NCBI RefSeq assembly: GCF_003790525.1
Contig: NZ_CP033636.1
From: Escherichia coli
Lineage (GTDB): Bacteria; Pseudomonadota; Gammaproteobacteria; Enterobacterales; Enterobacteriaceae
Reading direction: 5' to 3' (one strand)
Length of the DNA stretch: 64,000 bases
In this document: positions 9,732 to 10,916 of the stretch, piece after piece
Layout of the letters: every line of letters begins with the position of its first letter
How positions within the stretch are numbered: the stretch's first letter is position 1
Notes under the pieces: model-generated
Seen by the model: only the letters and a program-made list of their open reading frames with translations
The model's database searches: none
Told to the model about the DNA's origin: nothing
Made by a program: the position numbers and the translations under genes

Positions 9732-10916
9732 ATGTCCGCAATCGAAACTGAAGTAAAAAACAACAGCAACGAAATCAGCCTTCGTGGTTACCTGGAACGC
9801 ACTGGTAACGGTGCCCGTAAAGGCAACGGCCTTATCATTGACCCTTCGGTTGTTGTAGAGCAGGAAGGCTTTAACACCCGCACGGCCGGTATGGGCGAGC
9901 TCTACTATTCAATGCCTCACGTTGTGGAACACCTGAACAGCCTGGCCGATGCCTACATGGAAGACCCGTTCAGCGTGACGCCTATCGTTGTTCAGATGGT
10001 TAATGGCGTACCTGTACTGCGTCAGGGGGCTTGCCGTATCCGTTCCATCGCTATTGCAAACCGCCAGCTGGAAGCAGAAGGGCGTGAACGCATTACTCGT
10101 ATTCGCTGCGAAGAGTTTCGCGGTAGCGCTTCAAAAGCAGAACTCTTCACCCTGACCGGCAACTCCAACCTGGCGCTGTCTGTCGTAGCTGAAGCGCTTT
10201 CAATTAAGCGTCTGGTTGAAGATAAAGAAGAGCCTAAGACCTTTGCGGAACTGGCAAAAAAACGTGGTAAATCAGAGCAGCATCTTCGCCAGATGGTTCG
10301 CGTACTGGACCTGCCTTCTGAACTACAGACCATGCTTGTGAGCGATCAGGTGAGCATGTACGTTGCACTGGACGAGTATATGTACAGCGGTGAGGATGCG
10401 GTAGATAACATCAACAAAGCGATCTCCATCTATGGCAAGGCGACGAAAAACACGCTGAAATTCGTCAAAGCTGCCAAGGTAGAAGAGCGCATGGCAGATC
10501 CGCAGACTCCGGAAAACATCGGTGCTGAGCAACCGGCAGATGATACTACCGATAACACCCCGGTACCGGATCAACTGAACGATGAAAGCAATACGGAGAC
10601 GCTGGATACGCCACCGGTACAGGAACCGGCTCCAGCTCCAAAGGACAGCGCTCCTAAACAGAACCCGGCAGGTAAAGCACCTTCCATGTCCAGCGTTCTG
10701 AACAAAAAGACTGTGACCGTCATTGCAGACACCGCGATCCCGATTTTTGAACGTATTGCTGAAGAAGCCAAGCTTAAAGAAGGTGAATCTGTCAGTACTG
10801 ATACTTACACGCTTGTTCTGACCAATGATGAAATGAACGATATCATCAACGCTCATGCTGACCTGAAAGAGTACCTGCGTAAGCATGCTGATAAGATGAA
10901 CAAGGGACAGTCATGA
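9732..10916 (+). CDS. orphan ParB/KorB-family DNA-binding protein (394 aa)
   Basis: ParB N-domain-like PIVVQMVNGVPVLRQGACRIRSIAIA (box II analogue with GACR in place of GERR), HTH-like region SEQHLRQMVRVLDLPSELQTML, acidic Pro-rich linker; no adjacent ParA. Confidence 0.55.
   Translation: MSAIETEVKNNSNEISLRGYLERTGNGARKGNGLIIDPSVVVEQEGFNTRTAGMGELYYSMPHVVEHLNSLADAYMEDPFSVTPIVVQMVNGVPVLRQGACRIRSIAIANRQLEAEGRERITRIRCEEFRGSASKAELFTLTGNSNLALSVVAEALSIKRLVEDKEEPKTFAELAKKRGKSEQHLRQMVRVLDLPSELQTMLVSDQVSMYVALDEYMYSGEDAVDNINKAISIYGKATKNTLKFVKAAKVEERMADPQTPENIGAEQPADDTTDNTPVPDQLNDESNTETLDTPPVQEPAPAPKDSAPKQNPAGKAPSMSSVLNKKTVTVIADTAIPIFERIAEEAKLKEGESVSTDTYTLVLTNDEMNDIINAHADLKEYLRKHADKMNKGQS

Follow-up and report, generated by a model that had tools for sequence, protein, structure and literature searches.

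Which protein reads the short palindrome that recurs across the backbone of IncHI plasmids? The question is raised by a 64,000-nucleotide stretch of Escherichia coli DNA (contig NZ_CP033636.1, here called the window), in which an open reading frame (ORF) on the plus strand at positions 9732-10916 encodes a ParB/KorB-like protein. We refer to this protein, the target of the analysis, as paralogue A; two copies of the palindrome lie upstream of its start codon. On the evidence of the sequences, the proposal that A binds the dispersed palindrome and is a KorB-like, autoregulated regulator of the whole plasmid stands about evenly balanced between true and false, and among the paralogues A has the best case as the binder. 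In Salmonella, E. coli and Enterobacter, multidrug resistance is carried to a large extent by plasmids of the IncHI1 and IncHI2 groups. Plasmid-wide control, as known from the IncHI plasmid R27, is open to direct testing, since a palindrome that hardly varies occupies about 54 sites of the backbone and only a few ParB-fold proteins are candidates.

An orphan ParB-like protein of the IncHI2 backbone

Paralogue A is a stand-alone DNA-binding protein of the ParB/KorB superfamily, and the subfamily to which it belongs is mainly confined to MOBH/IncHI-like conjugative plasmids. The original prediction, made from the DNA letters, had seen in it a segment like the ParB N-domain and a helix-turn-helix (HTH), with no ParA ATPase next door, and our searches bear out each of these points. 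The sole Pfam domain in A is HTH_ParB (PF17762; residues 149-209, E=1.5e-5), with no KorB-specific domain, and the same stretch matches the Caulobacter ParB structures 6s6h and 6t1f in phmmer. PHROG 1033, 'ParB-like partition protein', covers residues 24-255 (E=1.6e-21), and an NCBIfam scan of A returned sub-threshold ParB matches only. A profile built from 48 diverse members of the wider family finds the solved ParB proteins 4umk and 7bnk at E of about 1e-14, with alignments that span both the N-domain and the HTH. An AlphaFold2 (AF2) model of A, built on the close-family alignment, has predicted local distance difference test (pLDDT) scores mostly between 73 and 95 for residues 13-250 (means of 10-residue blocks). 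In a Foldseek search of the PDB the model is closest to KorB (8qa9), to the CDP complex of Myxococcus ParB (7bnk), to the DNA complex of Noc (7ol9) and to the parS complex of Caulobacter ParB (6t1f), each at probability 1.0; sulfiredoxin is a weak match at rank 35. Structure prediction and profiles thus confirmed the placement in the ParB/KorB family, and no unrelated family emerged. We rejected a ParB-like nuclease or sulfiredoxin-type enzyme, which would have no HTH or would bear a catalytic DGxHR/GCHR motif: A bears a full ParB HTH, and its motif reads R-Q-G-A-C-R, not GCHR.

A HMMER scan of 1.84 billion cluster representatives yielded 424 relatives of A at E<=0.001. The close family consists of 31 cluster representatives, which all come from enterobacteria and are for the most part full length; in them the N-terminal 250 amino acids and the C-terminal 70 are conserved and the low-complexity linker between them is variable. 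The C-terminal domain is presumed to be a dimerisation module; we give it no fold because the confidence of the model in this part is only 58-73.

The locus is IncHI2 backbone and A is a real, conserved gene. Positions 9300-11300 of the window are 100% identical to many IncHI2 (MOBH, MPF_F) plasmids of 200-300 kb from E. coli, Salmonella and Enterobacter, and 1,043 plasmid records in the collection that we searched carry the A locus. Hundreds of IncHI2 plasmids encode exactly the same protein (100% identity), under the annotation 'hypothetical protein' or 'DNA-binding protein'. In pSTM6-275, for example, it is 'hypothetical protein' WP_001272970, and its gene lies within a same-strand run of small unknown genes, with the hok toxin gene on one side and the Tra1 relaxase operon on the other.

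No partition ATPase accompanies A. The ParA, ParM and ParB proteins of IncHI plasmids and the ParA and ParB proteins of IncC plasmids, used as tblastn queries, had zero matches across the 64-kb window, and the RefSeq annotation has no ParA within 12 kb on either side of the A gene. The IncHI ParAB system, which comes with repeat arrays of its own, is about 75 kb distant from the A gene on the circular plasmid. For comparison we used the whole sequence of the reference IncHI2 plasmid R478 (labelled L002-L007), which also carries a type Ia Par1 ParAB and a ParMR system, together with contigs from an IncHI1 plasmid (L008), two Klebsiella MOBH plasmids (L009 and L013, the latter IncHI1B) and an IncC plasmid (L010). 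A is an orphan ParB-like protein without a partition ATPase partner nearby. It is neither a partition ParB nor a KorB by class, since GERR, a ParA partner and KorB-specific domains were tested for and are absent: A has neither the clustered centromere and adjacent ParA of a partition ParB nor the KorB-specific domains and the KorA and IncC partners of KorB. A 93-amino-acid ORF downstream was considered as a KorA-like partner and rejected; it is conserved in IncHI1 and IncHI2 only.

A near-invariant palindrome dispersed over the plasmid

The motif is aAAAGTnACTTTt, or aAAAGTwACTTTt. We treat it as a 13-bp odd palindrome because the flanking A and T are favoured: in R478 they occur in 37 and 33 of the 54 copies, respectively, and the centre is A or T in 47. 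The window contains 12 copies of AAAGTWACTTT, compared with 0.01 expected from shuffling; if three more in which the central base is G or C are counted, the total is 15; no other one-mismatch variant is present. The last 20.7 kb of the window (43300-64000) contain no copy, consistent with accessory, non-backbone DNA. In R478 there are 54 copies of AAAGTNACTTT versus 0.43 expected by composition and 0-1 in shuffled sequences. The exact form is strongly preferred, with 32 one-mismatch copies versus 7-15 in shuffles. The backbone of R478 holds all of the copies except two or three, and one copy is in a Tn7-like tnsA; the resistance modules, the metal modules and Tn10 hold none. Non-coding DNA makes up 15.6% of R478 and holds 28 of the 54 copies (P=7.5e-10, with a crude ORF map), most of them 100-260 bp ahead of a start codon. 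We found no other dispersed palindrome in R478. In the other plasmids listed in Table 1 the motif recurs at a comparable density.

Two copies within traD (window 20359 and 22089; the gene is on the minus strand) lie 1,730 bp apart and have the same position and sequence in IncHI2 and IncHI1. Between the two groups traD is 73% identical as a whole but only 42% at third codon positions; that both sites are exact despite this divergence argues that selection on the palindrome operates at the level of the DNA. The 3' site, 55 nt from the traD stop codon, is found also in the distant plasmid L018, at 64% nucleotide identity. The traD sites suggest an internal operator or a promoter for downstream genes. 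A further pair of palindromes brackets the mobI-trhR intergenic region, the region of the origin of transfer (oriT), at 26950/27435 in the window, 190479/190965 in R478 and 35467/35952 in L008; the spacing is 485-486 bp in both IncHI2 and IncHI1.

The two palindromes that had been predicted within 230 bp upstream of the A gene are exact copies, starting at 9505 and 9631, in an arrangement that is conserved in IncHI1 and expanded in Klebsiella; the central base, given as W in that prediction, is better described as N. The probability of two or more sites in 230 bp is 0.0014 at the window-wide density and 0.01 at the intergenic density. In IncHI1 there are two sites upstream of the A orthologue, at -105 and -223, and in Klebsiella MOBH plasmids a homologue that is 35% identical to A has six sites within 870 bp upstream (P=6e-6). 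Dispersed 13-bp palindromic sites that include the gene's own promoter are a hallmark of KorB, and they are present and conserved upstream of A, which would be their binder.

The binder of the palindrome

In the model that we put forward, A would dimerise and its ParB-type HTH would recognise the palindrome, the geometry of which is that of the KorB operator: two 6-bp half-sites flanking one central base. Binding at the two copies before its own promoter would autoregulate a single-gene unit with its own terminator, while the other copies in the R478 backbone would be nucleation sites. About half of the backbone copies are 100-300 bp upstream of operons, among them the tra operons and the flanks of oriT, and through such sites A could control or organise backbone genes plasmid-wide, as KorB does on RK2. 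The N-domain would contribute the skeleton of a nucleotide pocket (N48, R50, G99, R102 and R104) without the residues of ParB CTP hydrolysis. The sequences show the fold, the orphan status and the statistics, conservation and placement of the motif; we infer that A is the binder, as well as its dimerisation, autoregulation, clamping and any given direction of regulation. The case for A as the binder comes from the conserved clusters of sites upstream of its gene in three lineages and from its conserved recognition helix: all of clade A retains the pattern S-x-x-H-[LVI]-R. The earlier suggestion that A is the most plausible binder survives in that A is still the leading option; A is not a unique candidate, given two more orphan paralogues and the precedent of IncC (PMC10954446).

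Several findings weigh against A, and the first of them concern these paralogues. IncHI plasmids encode three orphan members of the family, A, B and C, which are 25-32% identical in pairwise comparisons. Phylogenetic profiling does not separate the three, since every IncHI-like plasmid examined at full length has A, B and C. It is conceivable, although unlikely, that B or C binds the palindrome and that A has a different, sparse or unknown target and is one more regulated gene. All three proteins share the fold and the RQGHCR-type motif, and the HTH of C is nearly invariant between IncHI2 and IncHI1B. The palindrome is found just upstream of B in three distant lineages, at -117, -43 and -13. 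B is also very highly expressed and is induced under conditions permissive for conjugation: as R0042, the 'partition protein' of R27, it is among the most highly expressed genes of that plasmid, with 6,132 microarray units at 25 °C and 2,278 at 37 °C (PMC7366339). Set against this, the recognition helix of clade B varies among plasmids that have an identical motif, and IncHI2 has no palindrome upstream of either B or C. The lack of a second dispersed motif in R478 for the remaining paralogues cuts both ways.

Other points against A arise from the recognition helix and from the distribution of the sites. Residues E182 and Q183 of A differ in the Klebsiella homologue, where the motif is identical; in ParB and Noc these positions of the helix determine specificity. 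IncC plasmids have one orphan homologue, 30% identical to A, besides their own ParA and ParB; its recognition helix resembles that of A, and IncC is without the palindrome. Clusters of the motif occur at other promoters too, for example upstream of trhA. Finally, the promoter of A is assigned by sequence reading only, since a consensus promoter scan made no call at the gene. We read CCTGGTATTGTTGT as a candidate extended -10 element; if this is correct, the proximal palindrome would lie near -57 and the distal one near -183.

IncC plasmids also provide a precedent for a different function. There, 14 dispersed copies of AAACTTTCACATGTGAAAGTTT are parS, the dispersed palindrome of that group, and are bound by the ParA-partnered ParB in electrophoretic mobility shift assays (PMC10954446). 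By analogy, the IncHI palindromes could be an accessory or alternative centromere, with A acting in trans with the distant Par1 ParA or with Par1 ParB itself as the binder, a reading that we regard as very unlikely. In its favour, apart from the IncC precedent, IncC parS shares the AAAGT and ACTTT pentamers with the IncHI motif, and A has an N-terminal S-L-[RK]-x-[FYL] peptide that is placed like ParA-stimulating peptides. Nevertheless, there is no ParA nearby, no copy of the palindrome is close to parAB, and the intergenic, promoter-proximal bias of the sites suits regulation better than partition. Par1 is, moreover, a type Ia system with its own arrays. In R478, about 8.6 tandem copies of a 249-bp unit lie upstream of Par1 parA (L002, 12516-15095); in Klebsiella IncHI1B (L013) there are 34 copies of a 66-bp unit upstream of parA (24901-27124) and 2.4 more after parB (30390-30546). 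These arrays change along with ParB, which is 48% identical between the two, and the palindrome is unchanged. They are probably lineage-specific Par1 centromeres. We disfavour Par1 ParB as the binder because the motif is missing near parAB and because its own arrays vary with the protein.

Two side observations touch on this comparison. In the IncC contig, parS copies of the form ACTTTCACATGTGAAAGT occur at 291, 3875, 4334, 9649, 12985, 24029 and 27444, and the pentamers that they have in common with the IncHI motif point outward from a CACATGTG core, a likeness that may be accidental or may reflect common ancestry of recognition. The N-terminal peptide, in the wider form [ST/N]-L-[RK]-x-[FYL], is common to the three paralogue clades and the IncC orphan (SLRGYLERT in A, amino acids 16-24, window 9777-9803), and it sits where partition ParBs bear their ParA-stimulating peptide.

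The regulation of R27 bears directly on the function of the palindrome. In an htdA mutant 139 of the 181 expressed R27 genes rise (PMC7366339), so that a plasmid-wide regulon does exist in R27. Our literature search found no report of a common cis element for this control, and nothing on protein A or on the palindrome. The R27 orthologue of A, identified by gene order after flmA (R0101), is R0104; it is strongly expressed, with about 2,200 microarray units whether at 25 °C or at 37 °C, and goes up 2.6-fold in the htdA mutant (PMC7366339). The palindrome could be the response element of the IncHI circuit itself, in which the activators TrhR and TrhY and their antagonist HtdA control most R27 genes, and A could be unrelated to it. 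We consider this decidedly unlikely. The de-repression of so many genes means that a plasmid-wide cis element must exist on this account, and palindromes are found upstream of the AC, H and R operons. However, the trhY-trhF region upstream of the F operon, which is the reporter promoter of the circuit, has no motif in IncHI2 even when two mismatches are allowed, and in R27 it has one weak two-mismatch match. TrhR, TrhY and HtdA have no DNA-binding domain in Pfam or NCBIfam, and a short perfect palindrome fits an HTH dimer. TrhR and TrhY are disfavoured as binders because the upstream region of the F operon lacks the motif in IncHI2 and because these proteins lack a DNA-binding domain. TrhR was also considered as a hidden ParB-like protein and rejected (hhalign probability 0.04).

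A conserved alternative to GERR in the nucleotide pocket

Box II of A had been read as GACRIRS in place of the GERRxRA of ParB, and profile alignment to 4umk and 7bnk upholds that reading. The family pattern R-d-G-h-C-R-l-R-a aligns with I-A-G-E-R-R-L-R-A of the solved ParBs, and GACR is assigned to the GERR position because the wider-family profile aligns the two motifs. Of the GERRxRA patch A keeps G99, R102 and R104 only. In the close family L96, R97, Q98, G99, C101, R102 and R104 are invariant (LRQGxCRxR); among the 48 diverse members of the wider family N48, R50, G99 and R102 are invariant and R104 is present in 38. The family-wide form of box II is R-[DQE]-G-[HA]-C-R-x-R-[AG], and the G-H-C-R motif is seen across the 424 cluster representatives. 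Since G-[HA]-C-R is family-wide, the alignments identify GACR as the form that a conserved non-GERR motif takes in this lineage; it is no private decay of GERR.

The other two boxes have diverged as well. Box I of A is F-N-T-R where ParB has Q-P-R, so that an invariant Asn takes the place of the Gln, next to a retained Arg in the motif. In the box III region A reads T-G-N-S-N versus E-N-x-x-R, with no Glu and no Arg, in a register that is uncertain by one residue. A thus lacks the catalytic residues of boxes I and III. In the ParB structures from Bacillus subtilis, Caulobacter and Myxococcus, the residues that are kept in A make contacts with the nucleotide, and those that A has lost (the Gln of box I and the Glu of box II) are the ones whose mutation stops hydrolysis in ParBs. 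The invariance of the pocket positions across 48 diverse proteins argues that the pocket of A is in use. If A clamps on DNA, we would expect it to bind a nucleotide with slow or no hydrolysis, or to use another nucleotide. In this context, a 2025 survey states that ParB folds are able to bind ATP or GTP and that nucleotide specificity of the fold is not reliably predicted by sequence analysis or AlphaFold3 (PMC12704722). A is a natural test of how the ParB fold functions when GERR is replaced by a conserved G-x-C-R.

A conserved Cys, C101, adjoins the Arg of the pocket. Its presence lends something to the suggestion that A, as part of a leading-region-like array, acts in establishment or anti-defence, as a ParB/sulfiredoxin-fold enzyme or a coat on incoming DNA, and is not a site-specific regulator. 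The same-strand small unknown genes with hok/flmA in its neighbourhood would fit such a role, as would the location of homologues near PsiA, an ArdA-type anti-restriction gene, methyltransferases and an AcrVA2-like gene. We find the suggestion highly improbable: the ParB HTH of A is intact and its recognition helix is conserved, a PADLOC scan of A gave no match, and A is constitutively expressed in established R27.

Comparison with known ParB-fold regulators

Among the characterised systems, A is KorB-, VirB- or Noc-like and most likely works like KorB. KorB, the global repressor and CTP-dependent sliding clamp of the IncP-1 plasmid RK2, is the best structural match and has the same order of ParB N-domain, HTH and C-terminal module. 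Its operators, like the IncHI palindromes, are 13-bp odd palindromes that are dispersed on a conjugative backbone, near promoters and within genes, and that include its own promoter. Unlike KorB, A has no IncC/ParA partner, no conserved small partner like KorA and no KorB-specific Pfam domain; its box II has GACR and not GERR, it would have about 54 sites compared with the 12 of KorB, and there are three paralogues per plasmid. The ParB/parS system of IncC and IncA resembles that of IncHI in belonging to related MOBH plasmids and in having 14 near-perfect palindromes, mostly intergenic and with one at the par promoter (PMC10954446), but IncC ParB has GERR and a KorB domain, with ParA next to it, and IncC carries a separate orphan homologue of A.

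VirB of the Shigella plasmid pINV and BisD of ICEclc are, like A, orphan ParB-fold proteins on mobile elements, and both are CTP-dependent activators of transcription. VirB counters H-NS on a thermoregulated plasmid, and IncHI plasmids are also silenced by H-NS and Hha and thermoregulated (PMC7366339; PMC12704722). A is nevertheless related to VirB and BisD by fold only and differs from them in having far more sites and a different P-motif; anti-silencing by A is a hypothetical role. Noc of B. subtilis is an orphan ParB paralogue that binds tens of dispersed palindromes, and it is a strong fold match to A (7ol9); in contrast to A it is encoded on the chromosome, retains GERR and has an N-terminus that targets the membrane, and its role at the division site is irrelevant to a plasmid. 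ParT of the Streptomyces plasmid SCP2 is a precedent for a ParB-like DNA-loading protein that works without CTP, although it is a partition protein with a ParA partner (PMC12260392).

A more ambitious proposal would unite these features. A and its approximately 54 palindromes might form a plasmid-wide nucleotide switch that sets the transcriptional state of the IncHI backbone, as a KorB-like silencer or as a VirB-like anti-silencer of H-NS and Hha, with a non-GERR (G-x-C-R) pocket that binds nucleotide without CTPase-type turnover and with the paralogues adding further layers of control. We think this quite unlikely; if it were true, it would supply the missing link, in cis and in trans, for the joint response of most R27 genes to temperature and HtdA. 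If A did nothing more than bind DNA and regulate its own gene, the outcome would be modest: one more orphan ParB-like regulator on a mobile element.

Distant homologues of A provide a hint of other arrays. Upstream of P0048 (28% identical to A), positions 9165-9772 of contig L019 contain at least nine direct 20-bp repeats, CGTTTACTTTCTTATTTGGT (CGTTTACTTT-type), together with inverted copies, and the core of these repeats resembles the IncHI half-site. They could be binding sites of P0048 or iterons of the divergent putative replication genes, and we count the array as a hint only because it could equally consist of replication iterons. Another contig with a distant homologue, L021, had no repeated motif.

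The A gene and its neighbourhood

The features of the locus and the copies of the palindrome in other plasmids are collected in Table 1. The A gene is probably a monocistronic unit, since a stable hairpin and a U-run follow its stop codon; a simple terminator scan made no call there, as the loop of the hairpin exceeds the length limit of the scan.

Table 1. Features of the paralogue A locus, of paralogues B and C, and of the palindrome (positions refer to the window unless a plasmid or contig is named)
Feature	Position or number	Strand or span	Basis
Paralogue A gene, orphan ParB/KorB-like, 394 amino acids, ATG start, WP_001272970 family	9732..10916	+	ORF, conserved family, Pfam HTH_ParB, PHROG 1033, Foldseek
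N-terminal ParB/Srx-type domain, about amino acids 13-145; box I IDP..GFNTR, box II RQGACRIRS, box III region TLTGNSNL	9768..10166	+	AF2 model, profile alignment, invariant N48/R50/G99/R102
Box II / P-motif RQGACRIRS (xxGERRxRA in ParB)	10020..10046	+	sequence; aligned to IAGERRLRA of 4umk and 7bnk
ParB-type HTH DNA-binding domain, about amino acids 146-250, recognition helix GKSEQHLRQMVRV	10167..10481	+	Pfam PF17762, PDB ParB alignments
Disordered, length-variable linker, Pro/Asp/Glu/Thr-rich, amino acids 251-321	10482..10694	+	pLDDT <50 at residues 256-321; unalignable in close family
Conserved C-terminal domain (helix, TYTLVLT strand, helix), presumed dimerisation module	10695..10913	+	conserved in close family and IncC orphan
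Distal palindrome AAAGTAACTTT, 227 bp before ATG, centre at 222 bp	9505..9515	.	same position occupied in IncHI1
Proximal palindrome AAAGTTACTTT (aaAAAGTTACTTTtt), 101 bp before ATG, centre at 96 bp	9631..9641	.	invariant block in IncHI2/IncHI1/Klebsiella alignment
Candidate extended -10 promoter element TGgTATTGT	9678..9686	+	CCTGGTATTGTTGT block conserved in IncHI2/IncHI1
Terminator-like hairpin, then U-run, immediately 3' of A stop codon	10924..10959	+	RNA fold dG -21.7 kcal/mol, z = -3.7
Other 13 copies of AAAGTNACTTT in the window, starting at 1066, 15457, 20359, 22089, 23527, 26950, 27435, 27876, 30495, 38720, 40813, 41714 and 43278	1066..43288	.	motif scan
Paralogue B, adjoins dam; R27 R0042	R478 268858-270021; L012 19827-20990	- in R478	ParB-like, RQGHCR-type box II
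Paralogue C	R478 273234-274286; L012 15561-16616	- in R478	ParB-like, RQGHCR-type box II
Palindrome in IncHI1 (L008)	11 copies	41 kb span	
Palindrome in R27	15 copies	40 kb span	
Palindrome in Klebsiella MOBH (L009)	20 copies	40 kb span	
Palindrome in Klebsiella MOBH (L013)	19 copies	40 kb span	
Palindrome in four more distant contigs (L016, L017, L018, L023)	2-6 copies each	4-21 kb spans	

Two further features of the window lie beyond the A gene. A copy of IS1 at 12057-12830, with ORFs for InsA (12086-12361) and InsB (12280-12783), follows the A gene at a distance of about 1.2 kb and is missing from this place in pSTM6-275 and R478. At the end of the relaxase operon, on the minus strand at 16621-17352, a 'nuclease-related domain' protein has sub-threshold NCBIfam matches to the defence-associated kinases MAD6 (E=8e-11) and PglW (E=1e-4).

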